From: Rhizaria sp. SCN 62-66
Taxonomy: Eukaryota
Length of the DNA stretch: 39,385 bases
Reading direction: 5' to 3'
Assembly (NCBI GenBank): GCA_001724265.1
Contig: MEDY01000298.1
Coordinates: 1 to 39,385, forward strand
The position numbers were made by a program, and so were the translations under genes. The notes under the pieces are model-generated. The model saw only the letters and a list, made by a program, of their open reading frames with translations. It did no database searches and was not told the origin of the DNA. Shown piece after piece: positions 2,558 through 25,100 of the stretch; the first letter of the stretch is position 1, and each line of letters starts with the position of its first letter.

Positions 2558-5500
2558 TTAAGCGGGCTTGCGCATGGTTTCACGGTCGTGCATGTTCTTA
2601 ACGCCGTCGACGGGCTTAGTGACAGCACGGTACGCAAGCGCAACGGCGAGCGCAAAGACGAGGACAATACCGATCGACACAAAGGCGACAATCTCACCAC
2701 CAATGCGGATCGTGAAGAAACGGACGTCACCGTCGAGCTCCTCGGCGTATACGCACGCCAGCGTCGCATTCTCACACGGCCGCTGCAGGTCCGGCATCGC
2801 CGTCTCGGGCGGGCAGAGGCGCTCCAGACCCTCTCTAACCTCGGCGGAGTCGGCCGAGTTGACGCACGTGACGTCGCGGCTCTGCACCGTGCCGCACGCG
2901 GAGCAGTTGTTCCACGACTCGGGCCGCCACACGAACGCTGTCGACAGCGAGTTGGACGACATACACTCGCCGTTGAAGCATTGCTGGCCGTCGCCGCACG
3001 GCACGCCCGTGTCCATAATGCGCGCGGAGCCGGCGGAGCTGAAGTAGGTGCACGAATCGGAGCTGCTACGAGTCGACGAGCAGAACATAGTACCGCAGAA
3101 GTTGCCGTTGTTGAGCTTAGACTGCGACGCACACGCGGTGTAGGGCGCGCCGGAGAAGCTGGCGCCGGCGGCCGCACACGCCTGCGCGTGCGACATGCAG
3201 GCGCCAGCGTAGCAGTTGCCGGTGCTACCGCCGGCAACAGAACACTCGTGGCCGGCGCCGATGACGAGGTCGGTGGGGCAGGAGGCCGATACGCCGTCGC
3301 ACACTTCGGCCAGGTCACACGACGACGTCGCGGCGCGGCAGATGAAGTTCTCCGACGCGCTGCGCAGCTGGCACGAGGACGTGCAGCAGGCGTCGCGCGA
3401 GGAGCACGCGGCCGTCGACTTGAGCTGGCAAGTGGAGCCGTTGCAACAGTTGTCGACGCCGGTGCAGTCAGCCTGGCCGCAGTCGCACACCTCGCCCGCC
3501 TCGACGAAGCCGTTGCCGCAGATGGGGTCCTCGCCCCACTTGGTCGTAGGCTTGTTGAGCAGGCACGTGAGCGAGCTGTCGACATAAGCGTTGAAGTAGG
3601 TCACGGAGCACGTGGAGAAAATCTTGGGCGGTAGGATGCCGACGACGGCGTTCATGACGAAGCCCGACGCCGCGCACGTGTTGCCCTGTGAGTCGTGCAT
3701 CATGGCGAAGTTATGGCCCAGCTCGTGCGTGACAACGGTGGCGACGAACTCGGTCGTGTGCGACGCGCGCGCCTGGTTAATGCCACCCGCGTACGCGTTA
3801 ACGCACTGCACGGCGACACCGGCGTAGCCCAGCACGGTCTGCTCGAAGTCGTGGCCAGACAGTAGGTGTCCGTTATCGTGCGTGGGCGCCACCGCGGTGT
3901 TCGAGCGCCACGAGTTCCACTTGGCGAGCAGCTCGTCGACGGATACTTCACCGGTGGCGCACGTCGAGCACGTGCCGACGGCCACGGTCCAGGGGTCCTG
4001 AACGACGAAGGCGACCTGCGCCACGAGCACAATCTCCACGGTCGTGGAAAAGGTCGTCGTCGAGGCGTAGATCGCAGCCATGGTGTTAGCGATCGTCGCC
4101 GAGTCGTACTCGGTCTGCTCCAGCAAGCGGTTGTAGCGCAGATTGTCCGATGCAAGCATGAGCTCCACGTAGATGATCGACGGCACAGCCTTTGTCGCCA
4201 TCTTGACATTCGCGCTCACACTTGCACCGGCGGCCGCGCTGTCGGCGGCGGCGAGGTCGGGGGACATCATGTCGACGCCTGCAGCGCGCAGCTTGGCTTC
4301 GATCGTGCGGCGCGTCTCGGCGAAGCTGCCGTGGCCGTGGTGCCGGTTGTGGTGGCGGTGCTGGTGGCGGCGCACGCGCGCGCTCTTGGCCTCGGCACGC
4401 GCCTGGTCGTGCTCATCCTCATCCTCGTCGTCTTCGAGGTCCGCCTCGATGGCGTCGTGCGCGACACCGCAACGCTTGCCACCGGGCGCAATCCCGGCCG
4501 CCTCGTCGGCCGCCGCGGCCTGCGCCGCGAGGTCGAACACGACGTGCAGAGCGCCGGGCGAGAGCGCCTCGCCGCGGCCGTTGGCGACGCTGGCGAGCGC
4601 GAAGGCAACGTCGCGCTGCGAGAGCACGTTCACCGCCGGGCGCACGCCGTACTCGGTGCCGTTAAAGCCCAGCACGCCCGCAAAGCCTCCCGTGCAGGTG
4701 TCGAGCGCGACGAACGTGTCAGCCACGGCGGGCGTCGCCGCGGCCTCGGCGACGGTGAAGCGCGGCGCCGCAGCTGCCAGGTGCACAGCCGCAGTGTCCA
4801 TGCCGCTGCCGTCGGCGCCGTTGACAGCGCTGTGGGTGGTGGCGGCGACAACCTTGCCGTGGTAGTAGCAGTGGACAACCTCATCGCGTGTCTTGGCGGC
4901 GGTCTCGAGCTCGGTGATGCGCTTGCCGTCGATCCACACCTGGCGCTGCTCGGTGTAGCTGGGTGCGAAGAGTGCCTCGTTGCGCGAGTAGTAGACCTCG
5001 ACCGTCGTGGTGGGCGTCAGCGCAAGCGTGAGCACCCCTGCGGCGGGGTGTTCCCACGAGGGCAGCGTCGGGGCCGAGAGAGACGTCACGGACCATCCGC
5101 CCCAGGGGTCGGAGGCGAGGCGGGCGTGGTATAGGTCCGCCGCCGCAGAGGGGGAGAAGATGCGCGACGAGGACGCCGCGCGCGGGAAAAACCACGACGA
5201 CGTGGCCGACGCAGAGGAGAAGCTCTCGGCGCCGGACTTAACGTTGTTGTGGTTAGCCACAGTGGGGAGCGAGGAGGCGAGCATCTCCCACGTGACGCCG
5301 TCGCGGTACAGAGGAGCGGGCGCGCCAGTGGCCAGAGTCGCGAACGCTCCGGTCGAGGCAGCAGCAACCGCCGCAGTAGTAGCGTCGGAGTTAGCGTCGG
5401 CGAGGAAGTGGGTGGAGGAGACCGAGGAAATGTGGTAGCCGTTAAAGTCGGCGAAGGCGGGCGTGCTGTGGACGGAGAATTGCAGTGTGACACAGGCAAA

Positions 5501-5727
5501 GGCGAACAGGCAGCGAAATAGGACAGAGGGTACGAAATCTAGGTGAGATAGGGTACTGTTCAACACGGGAAATGAAAATAGGCGTGCAGTAGTTGAGGGT
5601 CGAACACGTACCGACCAGCTTTGCCGAGGCGAGAGTACTGACTGAACTCACCAGCGCTCGTTGTCGCAGGGGCCGCGACGGCGGCGGCGACGGCCACAGC
5701 GGCGACGAAGAGGACAGAGCGCATCAT
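2558..5727 (-). CDS. ADAM/reprolysin (M12B) zinc metalloprotease-disintegrin, type I membrane protein, ~1007 aa; exons 5727-5612 and 5465-2558
   Basis: Signal peptide MMRSVLFVAAVAVAAAVA; prodomain with cysteine-switch-like KRCGV; YVELMLASD strand; zinc motif HELGHNFAMMHD (3727-3692) and Met-turn FVMNA; disintegrin CGNGFVEAGEVCDCG...CRAATSSCDLAEVCDG; Cys-rich region; TSP1-like WRPESWNNCSACG...QSRDVTC; TM helix IVAFVSIGIVLVFALAVALAY; TAA stop. Confidence 0.92.
5466..5611 (-). other. Spliceosomal intron, 146 nt (GTACGT...CCACAG), phase 2
   Basis: Removing it joins the signal-peptide exon in frame to ORF 2558..5566 (..GKAGR|TPAFADF..); the 3' half is pyrimidine-rich. An alternative in-frame pair (GTGAGT at 5651 / TAG at 5541-5539) also exists. 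Confidence 0.65.
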
Positions 5728-6505
5728 GTGGGTCAGAAGACAAAAAAACCACAAGTGGGGTCGGTGGCGAGAGTGGGACGCGAGACGTGGAGGCGGACCT
5801 CTCGGGACGCGGCGAGGCGGCGGGGCACTTACCAACGAAAAAAACTTGCCAGCGGGGTTGGGCGGAAACGCTTTGCTACCAGAGTTCTAAAGAGAAAGTG
5901 ACTGAGTATGCCAAAAATAGAGGGCGAGTTGGGATGAACAGCGTCAGAAACAGTCGTATGCCGAACAAATTGGAACGTAACAGTCAATAGACGGCGCGTA
6001 TCGGGCTGAAAGAAGCAAGTGCCCAGTACTGCTTGAACACCCCTTTGCGCAGAAGAGAATTATCACAAAAACGACCTTCTGCGCATGCAGAGTTATTTGA
6101 TAAAGATAATAATCACAAGGGGCAATTCGAAGAGACACTTTATAGCGCTATATCAAAGACTGTTGAATGAAAAAACTAATGTAAATAGTCGCCGAGGTTA
6201 CTATCCTCCCCAGTGACTGTGAGCTCTCCTCTTTCTCTGCCCACACCAAGACTCCCAAAACCCTTTGTGGTGAGATAACATTAAATTGACTTATATCTAT
6301 GTATCACTGTTATGCATAAAATTGAACTAGTCTTCGCACAATTCAACATGTTATTGAGTATTATATTTTAATTTTATCTGCTAAGGTTCTAATTGAAGTT
6401 GCTATGTCCTTAATTATCATATTTAGGTTTGATTGGCAAAAGGGCTTGAACCTTGACAAAAGAATCTCAGTTGGGGTGATAAAGTCTGTCATTGAGAGTG
6501 TCAGC
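5728..6505. promoter_or_regulatory. Divergent intergenic region (possible shared promoter) between the ADAM gene and the hypothetical gene
   Basis: Head-to-head orientation and AT-rich composition; no specific element identified. It may hide a 5' exon of the plus-strand gene (possible acceptor TTTAG at 6422-6426). Confidence 0.35.
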
Positions 6506-9436
6506 ATGGATTACATCCCCCCGGCGCACTTGCATGTTGCAGCAGACATTGCGTTCCGTGAACAACGCGTGGGAAGGGCGCAAGCTGTCCTCGCGCAAAG
6601 CCGGAACAAGCCTCTGTTCAACTCGGCCGTTCTTCGTCGCGCATACAACAAACCCGTGCACACACCTGCTCCCGAGCACAAGCTCACCCGCGACCTCGAT
6701 GCAACCACCGCGTTGGACACGTCCATGCGCTACGACGCGCCTCCCGCGCTGCGCTTCGGTTCCGAGGCACCGTCTACTTTGGAATCGAGCCGTTGGGCCG
6801 AGGAGCCAGACGACTCAGCCTCTGCCTCGACAGGATTCCACAACGCCGCGCCGCTTGGCGCGCTGCTGGATCACGTGCGTGTGCCGGAGTTTTCTCCCGC
6901 AGACCTGAGTTACTTTGTTGCTGAGCCTCTCCGCGGGCTCGGGGCATCTCATAACCCTGCCGACAGCAACGCTCTGAGTGGTAGTGACGGCCACTACTCG
7001 GACAACGACGAGGGCAACGACGGACGCCGCGCTGGAGATGCGCGCATGCCTGGCGATGGCGCTGCTTTTATGTTCATAGCAGACGCGGGACGGCATCTGC
7101 TGTCTGACGTGACGCGCTGTCTCAACGCCACAGCCACCAATAACACCACCATGAACACGCACCGGGACGGAGCCAGAGACTTGAATACTGGCGCACACAA
7201 CAGCGAGCAGCTTAACACAGCCGGATTTTTAAGTGGTGTGTCGCCGGCATATCTCTCTCGCGCACGCGCTGCGCCAGAAGACACTGCACATGAAACAACT
7301 TCATTCACATCGCCCGTCCCGCACATCGGCGCAATGGCGGCTACTCCGGCTCGTGGGACGATGGTGGCGATGACGGAGGCGACTCCGCTGCGCGCTGCGG
7401 CTGCAACGGGGCAGGCGCTTGACCAAAGGCTTGCCAGCCTGCTGACACGACTTGACTTTAAGCAGAGTCAAACACACGCTGATGTTGCTGTCGCTCCGCA
7501 CGATTCTGCGCGCACACTGGCGAAGCCGAGCCACTCTTACGCGCGCATGCTACAACAACAACAAGCACAACTAACAGAGCAGCAATACCAACTACTGTCA
7601 CAGAAAGAGCAATTGTAGCTGCAGAAAATTAAGTTCAGCAACAGCGGCGCCGACTTCATTGTGCGTAATACTGCCACTGCTGGCAACACAATGACAATGG
7701 ATGGCGACACGACGACTGACAACGCTGCAATGCAAAATTATAACCAGTGTAACAATGTCGGAGCCGATGGCCTTGCTAGCAGCAATATTGCAGCTTATAA
7801 CAACCCGAAGTACTATCACTACACTAATTCGTACATTGACACCACATTGCCTATTCCCTCAGTTCCGCACAACGCTTACTCTCAGGTTACTAACCATGAC
7901 GATAACAGCATCAGAGCTGAGAGAATCGGGGTTAATCATGGTTGTAAGCAGGCTTCCGGCTTACAAAACGGTACATTACAGACTGGATATGCTTATATTG
8001 CTCAGGAAAGCGAAGCTCACGTTGACGTTGATGATTATGACACTGGCTATGACTATTGCAACGCCGGCAACAGTATCAGAGTGGTTGCTCAGGAGGCGCC
8101 CAGTACCCTGCCTGCTGCAGAGAGTGGGAACGCGTACATTCTCAATGACAGCGATATCTTGAGCCATGGATGCGATTATGATGAGGGCGATGGCAATGAT
8201 ATTGACGACGCTGCTGAGGACTGTGCTTCGTATGACGAGGGCGCCGGAGCAGAAGATGTCCACAACGAGTACATCGTCAATGATCAAAATAACCATGATG
8301 ATGACATCGAAAATATCATAGAAGACGACAGATTAAGCGAGTACATGAATCCTGACACTCAAGAAACGAAAACTGTCAACGGTAACAACGTCTACAGCTG
8401 TGATCATGTCGAGCACGGTGAAGACTCTCAGAACGATCGGTCATCCTTGACAGCGCACACAGTTAGTCATTTTGCAGGCGTCAACACAATCAGCAACCCG
8501 TACATCCAAAGCGTAAACTCTCTACGCAACACTTACTCCGGTGCAAGTCTGCGCACGGAGCGCGCTTCCGTTGCTGACTCCGACTCCGACTCTGACTCGC
8601 CTCCCGCGCGTGTTCGTCGCGAATATCACGTTGCGCCTGTTACAGCCGCAGCGAGTACCGCTCAGGCGCAGCGGCGCGAACGGGCTGCGAGGCGCGTCGC
8701 GGAGGCTGAGGAGGCGCGTAAGCATAGAGAGATGGAGGCATTTTCTGCGGCTGCGCGTGCGGAAGCAGCGGTGCTGAGCCAGCTGAACTCGTCTGCATAC
8801 GCCACGCACTCATTGCCGCGCGGTGTCGAAAGAATGATGGTGCGCTACAAGTACGATACTCAGACAGCTGTTACTGCGACTGACAGTTGGTCCCCAAGCA
8901 GGGTGCGTTCTGGTGACAAGCTTAGGGCCGCCGCAGCAGCAGCCGCTGCGCGTGCCTCCGCTGCCAGAGCTGAAGTGGCCACAAATAGCTCAACATCCGT
9001 GAAAGCTAATGTCGAGCCCCGGTCTGTGAGCCCGGCGGCTAAGACAACAGACGATACCGTAAACCTCGGTGCGAGCATCGCGACCACAGGCGCGACGTCA
9101 GCCGCGTCAGGCCAGTGGGGCCGCGACGGCTGGGAAACTGGCCTGGCTGGTCGGATGGAGCAAATAACGCAGCAACGGCAGTTCATATCGCACCACCACC
9201 ATGACGCACACAACCCACCAGTCTAGCACCAACAGCGCGGTGGAGTCGACAGGATCTTCACCAGTGATGATGACTCAGATAACAGAGTCAGTAATAGAAA
9301 TGCCGGGATTTATATTCCTGGCGACAGTGTTAGCGACCTTATGAAACACAACCTTAATGCTAATAGAAGCAGCGTTGTGAATGGTGCTGGTCGGAAGACG
9401 AACGTAGTAAACATGATGGATTCTGGGAGTGACTGA
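6506..9436 (+). CDS. Hypothetical, largely disordered protein (~976 aa) with Q-rich and coiled-coil patches; two in-frame TAG codons (7616-7618, 9224-9226); ends at TGA
   Basis: ORFs 6404..7618 and 7661..9226 share a frame, with no other stop in the 14 linking codons. After the second TAG, 69 more open codons run to TGA 9434-9436. The start is uncertain (ATG 6404 or 6506, or an upstream exon). Confidence 0.7.
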
Positions 9437-10505
9437 CTGTGATGATAACAGTGTAACATTGCCTGCACAGGCTGCGTTCTCCCATAACACAGCTCATACC
9501 CTCTACGATGACAATTATTAAGACGGTTATGTTTCAAACATTGTTAAAATAACATCTAAAGCAACAAAAGCGTTGCGTAATCATTCGTGAAGATGAAGAG
9601 AGTGAACAGCTGTGTGTAAGATGATGTTGACGGGCAGTACAGAAAAAAGTGCGCATATTATGGAACTAAGATACTTAGAACGTAGAATAGAATAGTACTA
9701 CATATGTAAATACACACAATTTATTAAAAGACAAGCGATATCCAGCCCATAATTGGTTTTCGTTATCATTGAGTGCTATCGTAAAGAAGTTCTGATATGT
9801 GTGTACGCCTACGTGCCACTTGAAAACAAATGGTAAGCTGCAGTGCCACCAGCATTATTCAATGAGATATTGTATAGATATTGATATTGACTTAGATCGT
9901 CAATGTACTTTGGATACAATTTTCGATTGACATTTACAGCGATTCAAGTCAGGACGTGTTTTTCACCACAAACTTGTAAACGCCATCTCCGTCCAAGAAA
10001 GTGTGAGCGGTTTTGGTGGCTGTAGAGACGAAGAAAGGGAAGCTAAATCGATGTGTTAATCGATTGATAATACTCATATAAACAATGAGTACCTCAAGCA
10101 ATCTGTATATAGTGTATGATGTTACATTTTTCATATTCGCAACACCGGTGTATCATGTGATTTTCTTATGTCGTAGACTTCGAGAGTTATCTCGCGCTCA
10201 CTATGAGTCAGAAGCTTCTGGAGATAGTGCCCTAGCTAATCGAATACGTCTACACAAGCGAACGTAACACGTACGTCACCGATGATTCAATAATACGATC
10301 GATTTTAATCTTGCTCATTTCTTGGTAGCACCCATGATCTGAAACATAGTCAAAATCCAAACATCACAAATCGTTTCTGTTTCCGTTCCGCATTTGTTAA
10401 CAACATCACCAACACAACAGAAGCAAGGGCAAAATCTTTAACGACATCGACAACTATATCAAGAGCTTTTTCGAATGCTTTGTTTTTCCAAATGATCGCG
10501 GAACC

Positions 10506-13500
10506 ATGGTCGATAAGTTAGTCAAGCTTCGCCGCGAACTTCTCTTACTTAAGGCTCCCTTTGCCGTGCGTGCGGCGCGCGTGCAGCTGAGTCACCAAAT
10601 CACATCAAACAACATCGTTGTTGTCTCTGGCAGCAAGGAATATGGAGCGCTTGGCCAGGGCAAGACGACGCAGATCCCGCAGTATCTGGCCGAACTGCCA
10701 TGCTTCGAAGGAAAGACCGTGTTGTGCTCGCAGACATCGCGTCTCACCGCACGCCACGTTGCGGCCACCGTCGCACCGCTCTACAACGCGACGGAGAGGC
10801 ACAACTTCGTATCAGCCCGCAACCCGCAAAAACTCACAACGACAGATACGGAGATTCTGCGCACCTACTTTGATGATCTATACACAGTTGTTCGTCATCG
10901 CTCCAGGCGTGATGAGAACGCCGCATCCGTCGTTCTTGCTGGTAACCACGCACTTACGAACCTAACCGCGCACACCCGCATTGCATATGCGGCAGAGGCC
11001 GACATCTTTGCAGCTGTGCGACAGTCTATTGAGCGCGGCCGCGCGGCGCGCCTGGGCCAAGCGGGCGAATGGGCGCCGCATGGCACCGTGGGCTGCTTCG
11101 TGCTCGACTCGTCGCACTTCACGGGAGCTACGTCGGCAGACGCTGAACGCTATCAACAGGGCGAGTTGGGACTCGATGTCATGCTCTACGTTGCGCGCAC
11201 GGCAGCTGCAGCTGGAGTCAAAGTTGTAATCATTACTCACAGCTTCGACGCCGAGGATGTGGTGGAGAGGTGCACAACTCCTGAGTCTGGCAAGCCGCCT
11301 CACGTGGTGTTCCAAGCCCCCGTGTTGAAACATGACAACCAGTATTTGTCACTACGCCATGGTATAATGTCTCAAAACACAGTGTCTGCGGCAACGGTGC
11401 CCACGATCAACGGTTGGTTGCGTGCCGCGGGGAATTTGGAGCCATTCCAAAACCTCCTTGTGTTTCAGCCTTCAAGTGAGGCTGTTGAAGCAACTCAGCG
11501 CGCGCTAGCGCGTCCATCAATCAAGCAGGAAATGCCCAAAGGTGACACATTTACGGTGGTTGCTATCACTGACGAAGACGCCGTGTTGCGCACTGTCGTC
11601 GGCATCAGCTCGGTCTCAGGCACATTAATTGCGGACTCAACCGCAAACGACGTTGATGGCGACGATGTCGCTATGCGGGAGCCGCGAGCTAGTCACAGGG
11701 CTTACGCTGTTTATCAAAACGCGGGCCGGGCCCACCACTTTGTGTTCCTGGTATCCCCACTGGCTGCGTCATCATTGCGCTTCCAAAGCATCTCCGCAAT
11801 TCTCAGCCCGTTCATCGAGGTGCATCGCACCGTGGACGAAGAATCGGGAGTTCAGGTGGAGACTGCGGGTGCCCCTACAAGCGCCATAGTTGAGCACCAT
11901 CAGCAGTTACTATTTAACTGTGCACGATATGACAATCCGAAGAATATTACAAGTATTTTTCAGACGACTGCTCATGCAGTTAATTTGATTAAGACCAAAC
12001 GGCCCGAACGATTGCCGCTGCAAGGTGCCTCGTTGCAACTTGCACTACTTGCATTTGAGTCTGTTGGAGTTGATGTTAAGACATATGAATGGTTGCAACG
12101 CCCTACAGCTCTTTCGCTTGCTACTGCACGCGATGAGCTTGACCGCTTGTTAACCACAGATACACAGCGCGTCTGCAGTAGCTCTTCGCGCGCATTGACA
12201 GCAAAATTCAGCTTGGCGCTGGGTCTGCCGCCTGAGCATGCCGCCCTAATTGTCAATGGCGCACTTATTGCGCGCACACCCGTGGGACTGTACGTTGCGG
12301 TTGCAATGCAGTTTTCTGCACTTTCTAGTCCACTTGCAGCCCCTGTTGCCAGCGGCACAAAACCCTCGTCGCAGATGATCGGCGATAACGGCATCGGCCC
12401 GGACAATGACGCTTCTATTGTGCTGCCTTCGCAGCCGATGCCCGCAGTCTCGACTGTCGGTAATGAGCCTGGTGCTAGGTGTACATTGCTGGCAAACAAC
12501 CGTGCCGCGTGTGTTCCTATTGACGCATGCGTGCGCGCCATTGCTGCGTGGCAAAGCGATCGCAGCGTGCAGGCGCGGCAGCGCGTGTGTGAGGATACTG
12601 GACTCTCTCAGGCTTACATGCTCTCAACTGACGCTTGGCTTACGTCGCTAATTGATGCCACACACGGTTTTTTAACCTCGAACTTTGCGGCAAACGGTGA
12701 GGCTAATGAGATGGTAGCGCGCATTGCGAGGGTGATTGAGCGACCGCTTCCATCAGCAACAATTGCGTGCGAGACAACCATGGCGGAGTTAATGCACCGC
12801 AGTGTGGCGGAGGTTTTTCGCCCGCGCTTGATTCACCCATTCGCGGCTGTTCTTGATAACGGCGAGCGGCCCACAGCCACGCACGCAACGTACGTTAGCG
12901 CCAAGTCACATGCGTTGCTGCTGGACGCCCGCCCGCACGTGCCCAACCCTGTGGTCGGTCACGCTGCGACACAACCCGTGGCTGTGTACAACATGGGAGC
13001 TGTGGGCGTGAAAGGTCAATGGCTGCTGTCACCGCCGGCGCTTTCGCTCCCCGCAGTCAACGGTGTCCTGAGCAGGCAGTCGCGCGGCCAAGCAGTCTTT
13101 GTTCCTATGCAGCCTGGCATCCTCGCGCTTATGTTTCCCAACACAGAGGCAGTGACGCTGTTAAGTAAAAAGCTGCGCTGCTCCCTTAAGCTCGACGCAG
13201 AGGGTGTGATGGCATTCAGTGATGACGCAGGAGTTCGCGAGAGTGCACATATTGAGCTATCAAAGCTGACTCATGAAATCGGATTTCAGGGTCTTGTAGA
13301 CGTTTCGCACTTTGGCATTGCGGCAAAAAGTGTTGCGCTATGTGGTGAGGGCATGGACGTTCGTGACGTCGCATTCGCGGACGAGAAAACGTCTGTTGTG
13401 CTTCGTGGTGTACCTGAGCGCTACGCGTGTTCAGAGCGTGTGTTTAATGAACTATTCATTGAGGCTCTTGAGCTAGAGCATGATGTGGCACGAATCACAA

Positions 13501-16065
13501 TTAACGGGGGAAAAAAGGCTGTTCATGCGCCTCAACAACTTGAGAAGCCACCCAAGCACAAGAACTCCGATAACGCAGTCAACGTTGCCAATAATCATTG
13601 TGATGACGAGAACGCAAGTGGCGACAGCAGTGGCGACGATGGCGGTGACGAAGAGGGGGAAGCGGCTGCAGTCGCAGAGGAACATCAAGCCCCGGATAAG
13701 GTTGCGGCACTAGAGCTAGACGATGGGTTTGACGACGAAGAAATGCGGCGCGTGATCGCTCTCAGTCTCGAAACTGCCAAGCTGGCGCCTCGTGCTAGGG
13801 AGCAGTTTTACACGGTGACGCTATAGTGTACATCGGTTGAAAGCACGCAAAACGTGTACAACAAGCTGGTGACGTTTTATCGGACAACAAATGATATCAA
13901 GATTCACGTCAGCCTCAAGTCTAACTTTGCTGATGCAACATTTACGGCAAAGAAGTCGACAAAGAATCAGCTGCTTGACTTTTCAAACGATAAGCGTTAC
14001 GTTCAAGGTGTATGGACGCGTCAGTTGTCATTCTTTCGCGTCACGTATCGCGCTACTTCTGAAGCTAGTTCGCGTAACTTGCATCCGGCTCTTAAGCGTT
14101 ACGAAAATAACGTCTACAAGCCAGGCGTGGTGGTAAGCGCACGTAATAATGCACGGCAATACGAGAGGCCTTCGTTGTATGTCGACTTTAATGTATTCCC
14201 AATGATTGAGCAGGATGCATCAAAGTTTGAAGTCAAAACAATGCATTCGGTGCGTTTTTACATTCCATCTGATGTTGGCCGTGTGATTGGACAGTCAGTT
14301 GTAGATGCATTGATCAAGCTTTGCAAGAGTAAGCTTATTGATATTGCAAGTGAAGATATCAAAGGCACGCGTTTTGGGTCGCGTTTTGAGATTGTGATGG
14401 CTTCGACTGGCGAGGATGAAGTTTCTCGTGCGCGCGTCCTTGTCGACGAGCTCTTGGTCTTTCGCCGTTTTCAGCTTTCTGAGCACCAATTTAACTGTGT
14501 TGACACAGCATGCGGTCTCCTTTAGCTGCAAAACATCATTAACACATTTCAATGCCAAGTTGTACCCCTGACTGCAAAGCCTAATGCACCTAGCAGTGCG
14601 ATGATGTGGCTGGGCTTGCGTGAAGAAGAGAAATCCATTGACATTTTTTGCGCACCTGTGCAGTTACCCGACGTTTTAGCTGCATTGAGTGCATTTGCAA
14701 CCAAACTAAGCGAGCGGACAGGAAGCAACAGTGTAATGTACCTGCAGCCGCATGCATCGCCGACAGAGGTGCTTCAACTTGCGCGCGACTGCAGTGTCTT
14801 TATCGGCACGTTTCAACTTACGCCAGCACAACTCATCGCAACAGTAGCGGGCTGTGAACAAAGTTTGTCACGAATTACAATGCAGCTGCAGCGCGCAAAC
14901 CTGCTGCGCACTAAGAGCGAGCTTGCTGTGGCGCGAAACGCCGGTCCTTTTTGCTGGCATTGTCACCGCGCACTGTCCCGGGCGGATGCAGGGAACGTCA
15001 TGATTAAATGCCACCATATGACATGCGCTGACTGCTTGCCTGTGTTGCTGGAGCGCTGCCGCGTCTCCGGCTTCCGATGTCCCGCATGTGTTGATGAGAA
15101 AATGCCTACGGATATGTCTCAGTGCGACATCCTGTTTGAGGGCATCCCGTCGGATATTTTACGCACGCTCTATATGAAGCACGTCTGGAGCTTTGTTGAC
15201 AGGCAAACACGTGGTACTATTATCCGTTGCCCTACGCGCTACTGTATGGAAATTCAGCGCCCTAACATGCTCCGTTTCAATGGTACGTTGCTATTTCATA
15301 ATGCACACAGTGTAAACAACTGCATCGCTATTATGCCCGGCTTAAGGGCGATAACTGCAAACCTGGCTAACAAAATCCAACTCGGCAATGCGGCTATGCC
15401 TACGCTTGCTATACGTCATTTTTGAGTTATGATAGATGATGTTATGATAACTTTCAATCAAACTCACATCCAATCCCGTTTTATTTTTCATATGTAATTT
15501 TTGCACAGACGTGTCAGGTGTTGAGTTTGCATGTACAACGTGTCTAGGTGTGCATCAGCTCCCAGCCCAAGCAGACCCTGCCACCGCGTCTGCCGTTGTA
15601 ACGAATAACCGTTCAGTCTTTGCGGCGCTGCGCGAGGCGCTGCCGGACCGGTGCCCTAACTGCCGCGCATCAATGTCGACGTTTGTGGCGCGCGCTGAGG
15701 TTGACTGCACGGCGTGTAAGCATGTTGTGTGCGCGTGTTGCTTTGCTTACAGCGCCTCTGATGACTCATGTATTCGTGAGCACATTGTTAGCTGCGGCCA
15801 CAACCCCGCACGCGTGGGCAATAGCGCGCTCAGGCGCGCTTTTGTGTCGGACCGCGAGCTTGAGAAGCTGCAGCGCCAGCGGCGCGCAGAGCGTGTGACC
15901 CAGGTTGTGGAGCGTTTTGGCGGCGGTGCGCTTGGGAATGTGTGGGAGTTTGTTCATCGCAGTGCAGTGAATACCCCCAGCGCGCTGACGCAGTACCTCG
16001 ACTCGGGCGAGTTCGCGCGGACATGCGACTTTAAACCTGACCTTAACGCCAAGGAGTTTCACTAA
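10506..16065 (+). CDS. Degenerate DEAH-box helicase fused to a UIM, RRM/KH-like region and RBR-type RING1-IBR-RING2 (architecture like plant DEAH11/DEAH12), ~1777 aa; exons 10506-15282 and 15509-16065; in-frame TAG at 13824-13826 and 14523-14525
   Basis: GQGKTTQIPQYL (motif I), CSQTSRLTARHVA (Ia), FVLDSSH (II), LLVFQPS (IV), SPLAASSLRF (V-like); UIM DDEEMRRVIALSLE (~13731-13772); C3HC4 RING CWHC...CHHMTCADC...CPAC (~14952-15089); IBR-like CPTRYC...CTTC-x3-H; RING2-like CPNC...CTAC-x4-CACC. ORFs 10506, 13854 and 14601 are in one frame; TAA stop. Confidence 0.8.
15283..15508 (+). other. Spliceosomal intron, 226 nt (GTACGT...TTTTTGCACAG), phase 1
   Basis: AT-rich with canonical ends. Splicing gives MLRFN-D-VSGVEFACTTC and joins the two halves of the IBR-like domain in frame. 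Confidence 0.88.
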
Positions 16066-16919
16066 TGCACCCATTTGCAAGTTGTTCACTTGCTGTTTTA
16101 ATATACAGCTGTATATTTACAAGCATTCTCCAGAACAGCGGGGCTAAGACAAATTTGGTTCTCTAGTCACATGTGACCGTCAGTTATTCGCACCAAGTTG
16201 AATTTGAAGATTTACTGGCGCATCCTCATGCGAAAGCATTACGTTAGTTCATAAAACATATTATTGCAATTATGTTTCCCATTTTGAGATATCTACTTTG
16301 GTTCTTACAGCGTAACTGCCTCTTGTTACACATGACTCGTTACTCGCGATACTTCAGTTGACAGAAGTCACGACATATCGATTCTCTAACGATAAAAATA
16401 AAAATTAATCTCAAATGTTAAGCTTACTTTGTACAGCAAATGTCGATTTCAATGCAGGTGAAGCCATGTTCATGTTGATACAGTAAGAATCGATAATTGA
16501 CCATGGTCAAAGCCGTTTGTGGTGGGATCGTGCGAAACGGTGGCTTGCTCTTGCCAAGTGGTCCAAGTGCACCACCCAACGGTCGTGTGCGGAGGCACAC
16601 TTTTTGAAGTCAATTATTTCCGTGAAGACTCGTTGATCGCGTGGTATAATAGCGTTTGCACGATTTAATCATGCAATAAGTAGCGCAAAATATTGTTTTC
16701 ACACTGATATCAGCGGTTAATAATCTGTGTACCCCTCGGTGCTCTCATCGTCAGAGTGGGCACGCAACCCTGTCATCCGTTGTGCCTTCGAGCTCTGTCA
16801 AAGCCTATGCACGTGACTCATTGTGCGAAATTCTTCTGTTTCCACATTTTCCGTTGTTTTCAAAACCTGTTTGCGCTTTAGAGTGCTCCCTCGCGCTTAC
16901 GCGTCTTGTTTCCTCACCC

Positions 16920-19900
16920 ATGAGTAAACAGACAACCACATACGGGCGCAACGGTGCGCCCAAGGTCCGGGCGCTCCTCAACAGCGCATGCCCCGACTTT
17001 GCGCATGCCATTTTTGTCTCCCAGCGTTTCCCGATTGCATCGATTATTGACATGTCGTCCGAGTTCACCATGGACAAGATCTGCCGCCGCTTCGACGCCG
17101 CGGTGACCAAGTTCCTCTCCGGAGAGATTCCTAACTCGATGAGCCACTTCGTCTACGCGCAGGTCGCACAGATGAACTACCTTATCCTGCTCCACTACTT
17201 CTCTGACTACTACCAGGCTGCTTTCGAGTCCGCGCTGAAGAAGCATCTCGCCGCGCTGCCCGCTGACGCGTCCCCGGAGGCCGTCGCCGCGGCCCACATC
17301 GCCGCCCACGACGCCGTGACGGCCTTCGCGCCTGTGCCCGTGCTCGTGCCCAACCTCTGCGCGCCCAACGCCGAGCTCAAGCGCTAGCCCGCGCCGCTGG
17401 CCCGCGCGCTGACAGCAATGCGCGTGCTGCGCATCACGTACATGGACGACCCCGAGGGCGCGGCGCTCTTCTTCCGCGACGTGAGCCGCTACTCGATCGA
17501 CGACCTCGTCGCCTTCGAGGCCTCGGTGCTCTTCCTTCAGGCCGCGCCCGTCGCCGAGGCACGCAAGTTCTTTGCCGCCCGCATTGCCGCGCGCAAGGCC
17601 GCGCCCGCCGCGTCTGTTGCGGCCTCCGCGTCCGCGGCGGCGGCCAACTCGATCGTGACGTGCCCGGCCGCGGTGACCGCTGCGCTCGAGTCGCTACAAC
17701 GGCCCGCGAGCGCGACGGCGGGCGACTCGACCATCCAGCAGCGCACGGACCCTGTGGTGCGGCTGGCCAGCGCCGAGCTGGACGTCGTGCTGGGCGAGGC
17801 CTTCACCAGCGGCGCCGCCGCGCTGCCGCTCGACGACCACGTGCGCGCGCTCAACAAGGAGGCCGAGGAGATCGTCGCGCGCACCACCAGCTCCGTCAAG
17901 GTCACCTCTGCGCGCTCCTTCGCGCTTAAAGCACTGCAGCGCTTGGTGCACCAGCTCTTCGACGGCGCGTACGTGCCCTTCGTGTTCGGCTCCACGGCCT
18001 GGGAGCTGGACTCGCCCTCCTCGGACCTGGACGTCACGCTACTTCACGCCGGCTCGCTGCAGCCGCTGGAAGAGCCGCTGCGCGTGCCTGCGCTGCGAAA
18101 GCTCTCTAAGTCGGTGCGCCGCTCTTTCAGCGTCGAGGCCGTGATGCTCAACGGGCGTCTCCCGCTCATCTCGCTCACGCACGTGCACGAGGGCGTGCGC
18201 GTCGCGCTCCAGGTCTGCTGCACGGCCAACCACGTCGCGCTGAAGACGCAGGCCGTGCGCACGCTTGTGCGCGCGCACCCACTCGCGCGCCCGCTCTTCC
18301 TCGTCGTCAAGCACTGGGCCAAGGCGCGCCACATCATCAACGCCTCGCAGGGCGGCTTCAACTCGTTTGCGTTCCTCATGCTCGTGCTCCAATACCTCCA
18401 GCTCCGCGCCACGCGTCCCCTCGGCGTGCTCTTTGCGCCGCCCGCGCTGCCAGCCTCGGCCGCCGCGCTGCCCGCCAACGCCAACGCCGCGCGCCTCGCC
18501 GCCGCGCCCGCGGACGCCGACTTCACAGTCGTAGATCTCACCACCGCGGCGGGCCGCGCCGAAGCACCCGTGTTCCTCAAGCATCCGACGCTGCTCCCGC
18601 ACCTCAACGCCGCGTGTCCCGTCTCCGCCGATGGCGGCGCGAGTGTCGCCGCCGCCTCGACGCCGCGCTCTGTCGCCTCCGCCAAGGAGGCCGCGGCCGC
18701 TGCCGCCGCGGCCGCAGCCGCTGTCGCCGCCGCTGAGGCTGCCGCGCGCCCCGGCCACCGCCGCGGGCACTCGCGCCAGATCTCCTCGATTCCGCATATC
18801 ATGAACTCGTTCGACCCCTCGATGGCATCGCTGGCGGAGGACGAGGAGCTGGCCGCGGACGCTGGCGGCGACGACGACGACGAGAACGACACCGCGAGCG
18901 CCACGGGCAGCACGCTCACCACGCCGCGCAGCAAGCCCAGCAAGGCCGTCTCCAAGAGCCCTGCGGCGGCGGCCAAGTCGCCGCAGCGCGGTGCGGGCGC
19001 GACCCCCGTCAAGGGCGACAAGAAGAAGGGCGCGATGGAGCCGCAGATGCTGTCGACGACCAGCACAGCGTGGCTGGCGGCGCCCGTGGTGCCTGCGGCG
19101 GCTATGGCCGAGGATGCGCGCGCGATGGCGCGCAGCAACGCGCTCTTCCTGGGCCCCGTCGCGGGCGGCGCGCGCGTCATCGTCACCCAGTCCAACGGGC
19201 ACATGTTCCACGCTATGCCGCGCGCGCAGCGCTTCAAGACGCTGGGGACGACGGAGCCCGCGGCGTACACCAAGTCGGCGCACCTCAAGGAGCACCTGGC
19301 TGCGCACGGCCAGACCGGCATCGAGTACGCTGACACGCTCGGCGACGTGCTGGCGGGCTTCTTCGCCTTTTACGCCACAGTCTTCTCACCCGCGCTGCAC
19401 GCCGTGTCGGTGCGCGAGGGCCACCTCGTGTGGGCCGAGCCGCTGCGCCGCGCCGCTCCGCAGAAGCCGGCGGCCGCCGCGCTGTACGCGCCTGTGCCTG
19501 AGGCCGAGACGCTGCCGGCCCCCGCGCTCGCGGACCACTTCAGCAATCCGGGCCAGCAGCAGCACAACCAGCGGCAGCAGCACCACCACAAGAAGGAGCC
19601 TAAGCAGCAAGAGCAGAGCAAGCCGGTGGAGATCACCAGCGCGCCGGTGGCCGCGCGCGGCGCGTGGGCGCAGGGCTTGCCACCGGCCATCGCGGCGCTG
19701 AAGGAGCAGAGCGCTCAGCAGAAGGTGCAGACGCAGGCGCAGGCGCAGGAGGTGGCGCGCCAGCAGCGCGAGAACGAGCAGGCCGCCGCGGCCGCGCGCG
19801 CGCTCGAGCCTCGGGTGGAGCAGCGCGCCGCGTTCGAGGGCTTCAACTCGAGCTTCACGGGAATCTTGATCGAGGACCCTCTGGACCCTACCGACAACGT

Positions 19901-21590
19901 CGCGCGCGGCGTCACTCCCCGGCGTCTGCACGCCTTTTTCATTGAGCTCGCGCGCGCGCACATCATGCTGTCGACGCACCAGCGCAGCTTCGCGCAAGAC
20001 GTGTGTGAGGAGGTGACGCAGTCCGTCGCCAACCTGCACGACTACCTCTCCGCCGGCCCCAACACGCGCACCGTGCGCGGCCCGACCGACTTTATCCGCA
20101 TCAGCAAGGTCTTCGCCTCGCTGCTCGAGGAGGTCAGCCTCGAGGACGTCGTGGCGCGCGGCCAGAAAGCGCGCGAGACCGCGCTTACGTCGCTGCGCAC
20201 CGAGATGGACCGCAACCTTGCGCAGTTCCTCGAAGAGCGCCGCCGTCGCAACGCGGCCAAGCGCGCCTCCAAGAGTGCCAAGGCCGCCACCTCGCCTGCC
20301 GCCGTCGCCTCGGCTGCTGCTGCCGCCACTGCCGCTGCGGATTCCGCCGAGGCCGCGGCCGCCGCGCCCCGCGTGAAGCGCGCCCGCGCTGCCGAAGCGC
20401 GCTCCAAAGCCAAGGCGCGCGCGCAGGCTCTGCGCTCTCACGCGCCTGCCGCCGCTGCCGCGTCGTCGACCGCCGAGGACGACGAGGCGATCGATGCGGC
20501 GCTGCAGGAGGCGCGCTCCAAGGCGCAGGCCGCGGGTCTAGACCTGGACGAAATCATGCAGGCGACGCAGGACAAGACGCGTTCGCGCGTGAAGAAGAAC
20601 CGCATGTCGATGGGTCCTGGCGCGGGCGCACCGTCGCCGGTTAAGAAGCCCGACCACGCCCTTGAGATGTCGCTCATGGCCATTCAGCTCCAGCTTGCCG
20701 CTCGCGCCGAAGCGCAGCGCCAGGCTATGCGTCGCGCGCAGCAGCAGCTCAACGACGCCGCTGATGCCGCGCTTGCTGGCACCCTTGCCAAGCCCGCCGC
20801 GCCCGCCGCTGCGCCCGCTATTGAGACCAAGAGCACCACGCCGTCGTCCTCGTTCAAGAGCGACGCCACTGGCGATGATGAGGATGATGAAGACGATGAG
20901 CTGCTGGCGCACCTGGCCTTTGCGGCCGATGACGACGACGAGAATGACGCGGCTGATAGCTCTGGCGCTATGCGCAGCGGTTTGTCGATCACCGTATCCG
21001 CGCCCGGTGGCGAAAGCACAAGCAACGGCACGCGCTCGCCCCCGCGCTCGTCTCGCCACAGCAAGACGGCGGATGTCGAGGCCGCAGTGCTGCTGCAGCG
21101 CATCTCTAATGCTAGCAGCGCGCTGACGGCGTCTCCCTGGGAGGCGCCAACTGCGCCCGTGATCATGCTCCGCACCGCTGTAGGCGCGGATGACGACGAC
21201 TTCGACGACGATGACGACGACTACGATGACGACGACGACGAGGACGACGGCGCGGCCGGCGCGGGCGTGCAGATCCACGTCAGCGCCAAGGTGGACGTTG
21301 TTGCGGCGCACGCGAGCTTCAAGACGACCGAGCCCGACGACGACGACATCCCGCAGCCGTCGATGCGCCCTAGCGGTCGCAAGTCTATGGGCGGCAACGC
21401 CATCGGCGCTGCGGGCGTGGCTGCGCGCAAGCCTTCGACCTTCCACATCCGCAAGGGCTCGCAGCTTATCGGTGGCAACATCTGGGCCGGCATCGGACTC
21501 ACCAGTACCAAGGCGAATGGCAAGTCCGGCAAGCTCGCTGGCGACGACGATGACGATGACGACGAGGATGTTCATATCACTTATGCGTAA
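16920..21590 (+). CDS. Non-canonical poly(A)/poly(U) polymerase family protein (Cid1/Trf4/GLD-2-like, Pol-beta nucleotidyltransferase plus PAP-associated domain), ~1556 aa; in-frame TAG at 17385-17387
   Basis: FVFGSTAWELDSPSSDLDVTL (GS + DxD, 17988-18032), RLPLISL, LFLVVKHWAKARHIINASQGGFNSFAFLMLVLQYLQ, LGDVLAGFFAFYA, and IEDPLDPTDNVARGV (19869-19913). ORF 16782..17387 is in frame with 17418..21590 across 10 open codons, with the same GC3-rich codon style on both sides; TAA stop. Confidence 0.85.
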
Positions 21591-22073
21591 GTGCACGGTG
21601 TACCTGCGCTACAAGTGGCAATATCTTATTTTCAGTCGATGGACACACAATTGTTGTCAGCGTTAGAGCTCCCGCCGAAGGGCCGCCTGCGCTGTTGCAG
21701 ATTGTGTGTAATGTTTGACCGCGCGTCGTGCTGACAACAAAAAGCTGATGCTTCGTCATGGCACGCGTGTTTTTTTTTTTGCATCCTATTTTTTTTGGTT
21801 GAAATGCAATCTTTTATGCTAAGATACGAGTCAAATATTTTTGCAAGTGCGAAAACCACTTCTTAAACTTCTTTTTGTTTCCATCAGTTATGCTAACATA
21901 CCAATTTCATTACCATTAATACGGAGTATTAGTTCAACGTAATACAATGCAACACAGTTTTAATTCAAAGCTTCTGTTCTACTGGTGACATTAGGTTAAC
22001 ATTCTATGTATTTTTCACATGTTTTCTTGCACATGCATATGTTTTAAACTAGAGATCGTTGTTGTGAATAAGT

Positions 22074-22103
22074 TAGATGTTGATACGTAGATGTTGATAC
22101 GTA
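22074..22103. repeat. 14-bp tandem duplication (TAGATGTTGATACG x2) just 3' of the helicase stop codon
   Basis: Read directly: tagatgttgatacg tagatgttgatacg ta. Confidence 0.8.
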
Positions 22104-22121
22104 AAGTCTAAGTCAGTGATA

Positions 22122-25100
22122 TTATTGCATCATGAAACGCTTCTTCTTATTGTTCTCACCCCTTGCACTTGACGTTTGCCCTGAAGCTTGCTTCCGTGGC
22201 GGAGGTGCAGCTGGTGTTTGTTCAGAAGCAATAGTAGACTTGACCCAGTCATAGACTTCTGCGACACGAACCAGGCCGCTGCCACTGCGTCCCGCAGTGC
22301 CACGGGAAGTGACAGTGGCAAAGAAAGCGCGCCAATAGCCACTAGCCCGGCTGAGTGTGGCAACATCGCCGACGACGATGAGTCCTCGTTTGGCGCGCGT
22401 CAACGCAACGTTGAGGCGTCGGATGTCCTCAACGAAACCAATTCCGCCGTGCGTGTTGGAACGCACACATGAGAACACGATAACGTCCTTCTCACGGCCT
22501 TGAAAGCCGTCGACAGACTTAACCTCCACATTAGCGGCCTTTGAAACACCGTTACCTGACACAGCTGCAGAGCCTTGGCCAACAAGAGACGAGAGCGTGC
22601 TGATCACGGGTGCTAGCGCAGCCGCAGCCGCTGCGCTTGCTTCGCGCACGCACTGCGCCTTGCGCTCCTGCTTTGAGGCGGCATAAGTTGCGGTCTCGTC
22701 ATCATCACAATTGTTCTCACTAGCCCGAGACACTGCACTAAAATTGGCAGCAGCAGTTCCTGTGTTTGTGACAGCAGTGGGCTTCTTGTTGAAGCTAACG
22801 AGCGAGGCCTCACTCCAGCCAGCACCAGCACCTGCGACAGCACCGGGAATCACGACAGCCGCAGCGCCGCGCTGCATCTGCGCCTGATGCTGGACTTGCC
22901 CTTGCTGCCATTGCTGTACAGTGGAGCGAACGTGCGAGCGTCCAACGGCGGCAGTGACAGCCGCCTCTGCTGCCTCACTCGTAACAGCGCTTCGGAGAGC
23001 ACGTGCACGTGCCAGCCGTGCTGCAGCAAGAACACGAGCAGCAGTCGCGCGCAAAGGCGCAAGCGCTGTGCTGATATGGCGTTGTAGTTGCCGTAGCTGT
23101 GCAGCATAGGGCGAGATAACGCCAATGTCGCTGACAGAGACTGTAAGTCCAAATGAGCTCGCATCATCCTCGTTGCTGCCACTGGCATAACCAGAGGTGA
23201 TGCTTGTAACAGTCCTGGATAGAGCGCGCTCCTGCGCAGCAATATGGGCACGCACAAGACTAGCTACGACTGTGGCGACAGCCACAGCTTCAGTCTCATT
23301 AGCCTTGGAGCCTGATCCTGAAATAAGTTCTTGCGTCGCACCTGTGTCAATGACAAGCACGGGCGACCAAGCCGCAGCGACACGCGCCCAGGGCAGTCCA
23401 GGGGGAGGGCGGCGGGTCGCTGCAGGCACACCGTCCTCAAGACGGCCATCATAAAGTGCGCCATTCGACCACAGCGAGATGTGCGGGTGCATGCGGTATT
23501 GCCGTGTCAACATACTGCTTTCGGCGCGTGCGAGAGAGAGCGACCATGGCAACATTGCACCCGTCAGGCGCATGCCAGTACCACGCTGGAGTGGAAGCAG
23601 CGGGATGGTAACACCAGGAGCGTGTGTGTGCAGACGCTCAAACAAGGACACATGAGCACCTGCAAGCGTAAGAAGCTCGCCTTCTGCGACAACGGGTGGC
23701 AACTGGCACTGATCACCAACTAGCACAACGCGCGCAAACGCTGCAATGTCCGCTAGACCATCCAGAGGGCCTTCGCTCTCCGTTTCTGCTGAGGCTGCTG
23801 CGGCTGCGAGCGCGCGCGCAGGTGGGCAGGCAGCAAGCTTTGTTAGAGGGACCGCACATGCGTGCTCGGGGGCTTGACTCGCTTCATCCACAACGATGAG
23901 TGTGAAACGCAGCTCCTCAAGTTCTGGTGCGCCTGCAGACACGCACGTGCAACAAATGACATCTGCAGTCGCCAAGATGTGATGGCGAGCCTCGCGCTGC
24001 AAGCGGGCTAGTGTACGTCGCGAGTGCTGTGCAACGTACCCAAGCTCTTCCTGCAACAGCGTGAGCCACGACGCGGACCACAATAGCCGCGCTGCAGCTG
24101 CCACACCTGCCGCAGCGCCGAGCGCACTCACCGCAGCGGAGGCTGTCACACGTTGGTCCGCTGGTACGCTCGCGTTGAGGCCAGTGAAGGGAGCCAGCGT
24201 AAACGCGTCGGCGGCAGCAGCCGCAGCAGGCGTCACCGTTGTTAGCGCACCCGCACCACCATTCGTTGCACGTCGGTTTTTTGCCGTGTCACTTGCGCTG
24301 GCGGAAGAAAGCGAAGAGCTGGACACCGTCGAGAACATACCAGCAGCAAACGCCCACTCAGCGTCTTCTGCCTCATCTTCAGCAGCGTCATCGCTGTTTT
24401 CATGTGGAGCTTCGTCATCTTCGCGCGCGCCACGCCGCCGCATGCGCCGCGCTGTCTTTGCAGTGGGTGCCAGAGTCACAGCAGCACCACCAAAGGGTAC
24501 ATTGGCAAGCGCACGCAGCACAGCGACTGAGCCAGGGCAGAGAACTGCGCTAGTTGCTGCTACGGCTCCAAGAGCTGTGCTCTGGCGCTGGTGAGAATAG
24601 TGCGAGCGCGGAGCCTTGCCTTGCCGCACACGCACCGCCTGCCTGCGATTGTGATATTGTGCGAATGCGCGCTCTGCACTCTCGCTTTGCGACGCAGCCA
24701 CAAATGCGGCGGCAGATGCAGCAGAATGGTGCGTTGCTGCTGTGGCCTCGTGGTTACCGAGCCGTACGGTCGTAACTTCGTTACCAGCAGACGTGACGTG
24801 CGCGGGCGCGGGCGCAAGAGTTGGTTCACTCGCCCAGTGCGGCACACCTGCTCGCTGCCTCAGCCCCGCAAGAAGTGCGACGTAAGCGTCCGTTGCGCGA
24901 CTCGCGTGGTCACCTCCACCATCGAGCAACGCGGCCATCGATGTTTCATTGGATTTATTGCTGCCACCAGTGACACGCGTTCCAGGGCCTGCGTTTGTTG
25001 GCGCGGCTGTTGCAGTGGCAGCATCAGTAAAAACGCCACGCAACCAGTCGCCACCACGGCGTGCGCGCAGTCCGCTAACCGTGCGCGACACAAGCTTCTG

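Follow-up and report, generated by a model that had tools for sequence, protein, structure and literature searches.

In-frame TAG codons in three adjacent genes of a wastewater eukaryote hint at a UAG-only change of the nuclear genetic code

Nuclear genetic codes that part UAG from UAA are rare. The papers considered here describe the change in the rhizarian exLh, in the fornicate Iotanema spirale, in three events within the Phyllopharyngea, and in one further ciliate (PMC5304391, PMC11687900). In exLh (Sainouroidea), UAG encodes Leu while UAA and UGA terminate; 384 in-frame stops were reported in 71 genes, all of them UAG, the gene ends comprised 56 UAA and 15 UGA, and highly expressed genes seldom used UAG (Panek et al. 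2017, PMC5304391). In Iotanema, UAG encodes Gln and UAA remains a stop; a single lineage has the change, and its relatives rarely use UAG as a terminator (PMC9161772, PMC5304391). Phyllopharyngean ciliates have reassigned UAG three times independently, to Leu or Gln, and suppressor tRNAs were found (McGowan et al. 2024, PMC11687900). Here, we describe a 39,385-base stretch of DNA (contig MEDY01000298.1; the window) in which three adjacent genes, g1, g2, and g3, are interrupted by five in-frame TAG codons. UAG-only codes are already known, and the case presented here would, if real, be a further lineage of that type.

The window resembles exLh in that UAG is the only internal stop, in that UAA is the major and UGA the minor terminator (56:15 in exLh and 4:1 in the window), and in the under-use of UAG in some genes. 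It differs from exLh in having 5 TAGs in 5 genes rather than 384 in 71 genes and in the poor score of Leu at the aligned sites. The relatives of exLh are coprophilic or free-living, and to see in this a fit with a sewage habitat is speculation. With Iotanema, the window would share a stop-to-sense change of UAG alone in a non-ciliate protist, but the Iotanema case comes with transcriptome-wide data and a GTS-to-GGS change in eRF1, whereas the present case is known from one contig. The likeness to the Phyllopharyngea lies in a UAG read as sense beside a UAA that is firmly a stop, and in the metagenome-derived eukaryotic genomes from which those cases come; phyllopharyngean use of UAG is widespread, whereas it is sparse in the window. 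Codes of the type represented by exLh, Iotanema, and NCBI table 15 have in-frame UAG codons colinear with homologues, which we found at two of the five sites. In such codes, moreover, UAA and UGA are absent from within reading frames and retain their role as terminators, which held throughout the window. The window does not look like ciliate DNA, since it is GC-rich and carries several genes and long AT-rich spacers over 39 kb. Ciliate genomes are typically AT-rich or composed of gene-sized chromosomes.

In-frame TAG codons and the frames around them

The first-pass annotation of the window, made from the sequence, had proposed that UAG is a sense codon in this organism and had pointed to five isolated TAGs that split three adjacent genes. 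Translations and the DNA context placed all five in frame and confirmed their coordinates and flanking peptides (Table 1). Under the standard code, the open reading frames (ORFs) meet exactly at the TAGs: 6326-7618 and 7619-9226 in g1; 10401-13826, 13827-14525, and 14526-15425 in g2; and 16680-17387 and 17388-21590 in g3. When TAG is read as sense, these merge into ORFs of 6326-9436, 10401-15425, and 16680-21590. The same frame continues past the TAGs at 7616, 9224, 13824, 14523, and 17385 for 535, 69, 232, 252 (to an intron), and 1400 codons, respectively, as had been claimed. Off-frame stop-free runs in the same genes (n = 341) had a median length of 11 codons, with 7% reaching at least 69 codons and 0.3% at least 232. 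The reported absence of internal TAA and TGA codons and of frameshifts also held: in frame, the 4,309 codons of g1 to g3 contain five TAG, no TAA, and no TGA, and neither TAA nor TGA occurs in the 6,782 in-frame codons of the other two genes of the window. The five gene ends were likewise as listed, with TAA at four (2558, 16065, 21590, and 22122), TGA at one (9436), and TAG at none.

We scored codon usage as log-odds, with the two TAG-free genes as the training set. In all eight segments that flank the TAGs, the score was positive in the same frame, at 0.06 to 0.46 per codon, and the two other frames scored negative. The 69 codons past 9224 scored as coding sequence (0.398 per codon), and the flank 3' of the g1 TGA scored -0.26. 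Ahead of 17385, the 155 codons in the same frame scored 0.433, with a GC content at third codon positions (GC3) of 0.83. Support for the frame at 7616, 9224, and 17385 is limited to frame continuity and this score.

Contigs from other sequencing runs allowed the TAGs to be checked in independent data. All five are unchanged in the contigs of a second study (X2; 7616 in record 3, 9224, 13824, and 14523 in record 4, and 17385 in record 5), though these contigs show a few other differences from the window. In the contigs of a third study (X4), two of the five are unchanged among the matches listed (13824 in record 13 and 17385 in record 15). An assembly error, which the first-pass annotation had named as a possible refutation, is therefore excluded. 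A contig from a polyA-selected RNA library (X5, record 18; positions 7378-7665, depth 2.9) retains the TAG at 7616 with zero differences, unspliced and unedited, and RNA editing or splicing at this site is disfavoured. The further concern that the TAGs might be spliced out of transcripts is thereby lessened for 7616, by one contig of low depth from a library that can contain DNA. The X5 contigs may derive from RNA; 6 of 30 bins had no X5 depth, 5 of them mostly intergenic, and such gaps in contig cover are no evidence. Across the four runs compared, no alternative letter occurred at any of the five sites, with the limit that contigs omit rare variants and could miss an intact second allele. 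The five TAGs are true genomic codons inside coding sequence.

Strain differences within the coding sequence comprised five synonymous and three non-synonymous changes and an in-frame 3-base deletion, too few for a test. In X2, three bases are absent in frame from g2 at window position 13533, in an acidic low-complexity linker ahead of the UIM-like motif.

Homologues and architecture of the g2 protein

A HMMER scan of 1.84 billion representatives with residues 394-1593 of the g2 protein gave six matches: P0003 and P0004, which are the window's own fragments; P0002, a piece of the orthologue from a related organism; and the distant homologues P0005, P0006, and P0007. To these we added P0008, a longer cluster mate of P0002, and P0011, which was found by a word-based search and comes from the same contig set as P0008. 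A protein search with g2 at near lengths returned its own fragment only. P0002/P0008 are 55% identical to g2 over 753 columns, and the alignment is gapless across 13824 (TVTL-X-CTSVES versus DVTV-M-FKSVES). P0011 is 58% identical over 385 columns that run across 14523 (GLL-X-LQNIIN versus GLR-K-LQAVIN); the neighbouring residues and all RING cysteines downstream of 14523 are conserved in P0011, and its ORF enters a GT at the same intron site. The distant homologues P0005 and P0006 span both TAG columns uninterrupted, and P0006 is a single uninterrupted ORF of 1506 residues that runs from a DEAH helicase to a RING/IBR region. Because the orthologue is colinear across 13824 and 14523, introns and separate genes are excluded at both sites. 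Judged by these alignments, both g2 TAGs lie inside one conserved polypeptide.

The orthologue of the related organism is itself in pieces. In four contigs, P0008 stops after ...SFFRV, at a point where the window reads T, and P0011 begins 28 aligned residues further on. The initial M of P0011 corresponds to V in the window protein, and M likewise stands for V, of the window protein or of a cluster mate, at the starts of P0008 and P0002, as if gene callers had restarted at GTG within a continuous frame. To go by the alignment, such pieces would be expected if that species had in-frame stops elsewhere in the gene. Since the related orthologue is split too, the frame would be conserved in two species that are 45% diverged, though broken at different points in each.

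The description of g2 as a gene split by TAGs needed one amendment. Both TAGs lie inside the gene, but it is not one ORF to 16065, as the first frame hits a TGA at 15423-15425. A GT-AG intron at 15283-15508 joins g2 exon 1 to the frame at 15509-16065, and exon 2 aligns with residues 1439-1500 of P0006, directly past the part that matches exon 1 (E value 0.003). No spliced joint of this intron was present among the RNA contigs.

The first-pass annotation had held that readthrough rebuilds a protein with DEAH helicase and RBR domains. Pfam recognized no family in the window protein, and the claim stands as far as a weak match to motif I and the distant homologue P0006 carry it. In g2, a stretch around motif I (residues 47-95) matches Prp43/DHX helicases (E value 2e-4), and by eye the DEAH box has the sequence DSSH. 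The helicase part (10503-11900) retains a GxGKT/TQxPQ-like motif I, and the corresponding motifs of P0006 are intact. P0006 is clearly a helicase of the DEAH type (Prp43 E value 5e-43; Helicase_C 24.2 bits versus a cut-off of 23.5), and its IBR match reached 15.8 bits, under the cut-off of 24.3. Past the TAG at 14523, a C-x2-C...C-x-H-x2-C-x2-C...C-x2-C pattern is visible by eye, and its cysteines are conserved in P0011. Pfam found no family in exon 2, where IBR was undetected. Helicase and RING parts occur in one polypeptide in P0006, and in the window such a polypeptide needs readthrough of both TAGs. Its motifs suggest that the g2 protein, which bears a UIM-like motif and a RING, may serve as a helicase scaffold without catalytic activity. 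An AlphaFold model of residues 1075-1593, built from a five-row alignment, was poor (mean predicted local distance difference test [pLDDT] score of 54); it suggests that the TAG at 14523 falls in a helix (pLDDT of about 72) and the TAG at 13824 in a low-confidence strand.

The alignments also bear on the amino acid that UAG might encode. The residues opposite 13824 are M (P0002/P0008), T (P0005), and V (P0006), and those opposite 14523 are K (P0011), Q (P0005), and K (P0006), with the P0005 and P0006 rows at 14523 coming from a gappy region of the MAFFT alignment. BLOSUM62 sums over the six aligned residues were 7 for K, 4 for Q, 3 for M, and -4 for L, and Trp was the lowest of all 20 amino acids. 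Gln, as in Iotanema, ranks second by this sum and is possible for the window.

Translation of UAG and competing explanations

Our best reading, which we consider probable, is that UAG is translated as a sense codon while UAA (four gene ends) and UGA (one gene end) terminate. The ribosome would then insert an amino acid at the five TAGs, so that UAG would behave as sense. By analogy with known UAG-only codes, a tRNA whose anticodon is CUA would pair with UAG and not with UAA, possibly aided by a weakened response of eRF1 to UAG. Translation itself, the tRNA, the change in eRF1, the amino acid, and a genome-wide rather than a partial or dual trait are all things that we infer. What stands of the variant code as first proposed is that the TAGs are real, lie in coding sequence, and must be read through for the proteins to be made; its genome-wide reach would have to be drawn from one contig. 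The data hint at a rare UAG-only code change, and a single contig is no proof of it. TAG is used sparsely and unevenly, at about one codon in 860 in three genes and not at all in two, as fits a codon that is young or inefficiently decoded. More tentatively, an uncultured clade of wastewater protists, probably non-ciliate and including at least this organism and the relative with the 55 to 58% identical orthologue, may have independently captured UAG alone and be at an early, low-usage stage. If so, it would offer a natural intermediate for the study of stop-codon capture while UAA remains a stop: in a new lineage with sparse UAG, an early stage of capture would be visible, and the tRNA and eRF1 changes that are needed could be tested. 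A literature search for reports of a changed UAG in protists from wastewater found none, which is a weak negative. In practical terms, g2 is present in the public protein collection as three fragments, of 1106, 223, and 273 residues; standard-code gene callers fragment the proteins of this organism, and eukaryotic bins from wastewater would therefore be mis-annotated.

Several observations weigh against a sense UAG. That UAA and UGA terminate and UAG never does is based on five gene ends, a small sample. Homologue support covers two of the five TAG sites, both in g2, and a protein search with the N-terminus of g3, confined to proteins of 495-1575 residues, returned its own fragment and no relative. 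The aligned residues are inconsistent (M/T/V versus K/Q/K), and two sites carry no real weight. The window contains no tRNA gene, no Rfam family, and no eRF1 gene. The RNA-library contig is of low depth, and DNA carry-over is possible. The break in the related organism's orthologue could be an intron. Under the codon usage of these genes, about 58% of the single-base changes that create a stop yield TAG, and random nonsense mutation would hence produce five TAGs out of five with P of 0.065 to 0.075; the TAG-only pattern is by itself weak evidence, weaker than the first-pass annotation held. TAG is also unevenly distributed (5 of 4,309 codons in g1 to g3 versus 0 of 6,782 in the other two genes; Fisher p = 0.009), as would be expected if only g1 to g3 were decaying. 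In g1, one X2 contig (depth 4.3) carries five extra bases behind 8851 that duplicate in tandem those just before them; this insertion would give a stop after 9 or 49 codons. X4 equals the window there, and either the g1 tail is weakly constrained or the X2 contig is wrong. Finally, the helicase motifs of g2 are degenerate in this organism.

The last four of these observations are those on which a standard code could be retained, with g1 to g3 recently disabled (nonsense alleles or young pseudogenes, perhaps of one haplotype) and the TAGs as real premature stops: TAG is the favoured product of nonsense mutation, all TAGs sit in three adjacent genes within 10 kb, the X2 insertion shifts the frame, and the g2 helicase motifs are degenerate. 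An intact second allele could also escape contigs that drop rare variants. Yet the 4,309 codons lack the frameshifts, TAA, and TGA of a pseudogene, save for the X2 insertion in g1, and the coding signal is undiminished past every TAG. Orthologue identity is 58% past the TAGs versus 55% ahead of them, and neither the RING cysteines nor the intron site has been lost; the orthologue of the related species has stayed conserved although it, too, is interrupted, in its case elsewhere. The TAGs are moreover fixed in runs of 2015 to 2025 from three studies, and the strain differences given above, though few, lean the same way. We therefore regard disabled genes as unlikely. A similarly low probability attaches to a close variant of our best reading, in which UAG retains its stop role at the ends of genes yet is leaky or dual, internal UAG being read by a near-cognate or weak suppressor tRNA with the aid of context. 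The base past the TAG is C at four sites and T at one, versus C at 24.8% of codon starts. C at that position promotes eukaryotic readthrough. TAG is also rare and is avoided in the two large genes, as expected for a costly codon, and UAG of exLh is likewise under-used in highly expressed genes (PMC5304391). However, none of the five gene ends uses TAG, g1 and g2 would each need two readthroughs, so that losses would multiply, and local folding stands out at just one of the sites, 13824 (z of -2.39).

Correction of the mRNA, for example by adenosine-to-inosine (A-to-I) editing that turns UAG into UGG (Trp), known from filamentous ascomycetes, seems very unlikely. Fungal editing is reported to favour U at -1 and hairpin loops and to correct premature UAG in dozens of genes (PMC11156358, PMC4817773, PMC10776026). 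The likeness is that there, too, genes are broken almost only by UAG and yet are in frame and functional (PMC4817773, PMC10776026). In minimum-energy folds, the A of four of the five TAGs lies in a hairpin loop, but this is no more than background, since the same holds for 51% of 37 off-frame TAGs and 42% of 380 NAG codons. Ascomycete orthologues have Trp at the edited site, whereas Trp occurs at none of the six aligned homologue residues here and has the lowest substitution score. The RNA-library contig is unedited at 7616, though editing could be stage-specific. Least probable of all, to the point of being negligible, is that the TAGs are artefacts of assembly or sequencing or mark short in-frame introns. 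At least one intron is present in this organism, in g2, but identical TAGs in the contigs of two further studies, the one-for-one colinearity of orthologue residues over 13824 and 14523, and the unspliced contig at 7616 all speak against this explanation, and five frame-preserving introns without other stops would be very unlikely. Translation of UAG as sense thus remains the reading that we prefer.

Source of the window and neighbouring features

A search of sequencing runs found the window sequence in bioreactor, wastewater, and activated-sludge runs from at least three studies (2015 to 2025), which identifies the window as a metagenome contig. A eukaryotic source is indicated by the ADAM and Cid1 domains, the GT-AG intron, and the occurrence of contigs in a polyA RNA library; the contig is from an intron-poor microbial eukaryote of wastewater and bioreactor metagenomes. 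Scans meant to recover further DNA from this organism or from related ones gave no match among metagenome contigs (queries: the N-terminus of the 5753-codon ORF and the P0005 plus P0007 alignment), genome contigs (g2 and P0008), or viral contigs (g2, P0008, and P0006).

Table 1. Genes, exons, and in-frame TAG codons of the window
Feature	Position	Strand	Remarks
ADAM-like gene (Reprolysin + Disintegrin)	2558..5647	-	Reprolysin E 2.8e-27, Disintegrin E 2.7e-15
g1, low-complexity ORF without recognised family	6326..9436	+	Met candidates for start at 6404, 6506
TAG 1 of g1	7616..7618	+	QKEQL-TAG-LQK
TAG 2 of g1	9224..9226	+	69 codons ahead of g1 TGA
g2 exon 1	10506..15282	+	degenerate DEAH-type helicase region, UIM-like motif, middle domains, RING-type Cys/His pattern
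TAG 1 of g2	13824..13826	+	in exon 1
TAG 2 of g2	14523..14525	+	in exon 1, ahead of RING-type pattern
g2 intron, inferred spliceosomal, 226 nucleotides, phase 1	15283..15508	+	GTACGT...CACAG
g2 exon 2, Cys-rich, IBR/RING2-like	15509..16065	+	terminator TAA 16063-16065
g3, Cid1/MTPAP-type nucleotidyltransferase gene	16920..21590	+	PF22600 E 1.5e-07; PF03828 E 5.1e-05; terminator TAA 21588-21590
TAG of g3	17385..17387	+	codon 156, upstream of nucleotidyltransferase domain
ORF of 5753 codons, open at window end, C-terminal UPF1-like helicase	22122..39383	-	AAA_12 E 1.6e-49, AAA_11 E 5.7e-27

The window consists of GC-rich genes (GC3 of 0.55 to 0.85), five of them large, with AT-rich spacers between. 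The spacers lie at 1-2500, 5648-6325, 9437-10400, 16066-16900, and 21591-22121; the GC content of the first 2 kb is 42.6%, versus up to 72% in genes. The 6-17 kb segment, which holds g1 and g2, has a GC content of 50 to 54%, below that of the rest of the window, and all five TAGs lie within 7.6-17.4 kb. The terminator of g1 (TGA at 9434-9436) is followed directly by C, and in-frame CTG TGA TGA TAA lies beyond it (to 9448); this sole TGA terminator in the window is backed by a row of further in-frame stops (9434-9448). In g3, alanine-rich and acidic low-complexity stretches (18408-19074 and 21076-21742) draw contigs of many other organisms, and the same stretches show depth spikes of 40 to 345 and many spurious joints in the runs aligned.

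The two remaining genes are free of in-frame TAG. The ADAM-like gene has a stop-to-stop ORF of 1029 codons and terminates in TAA at 2558-2560. The feature-based Atlas neighbours of its protein are animal and fungal ADAMs. Atlas comparisons of this protein and of the helicase end of the 5753-codon ORF gave family names and no usable taxonomic placement. The ADAM-like gene is an odd one for a free-living protist. The ORF at 22122-39383, which terminates in TAA at 22122-22124, runs for at least 5753 codons without an intron or stop. It carries a UPF1-like helicase (AAA_11 plus AAA_12) in its last ~1250 residues and a second P-loop match ~3,000 residues upstream of that helicase, and the remainder is without a family.

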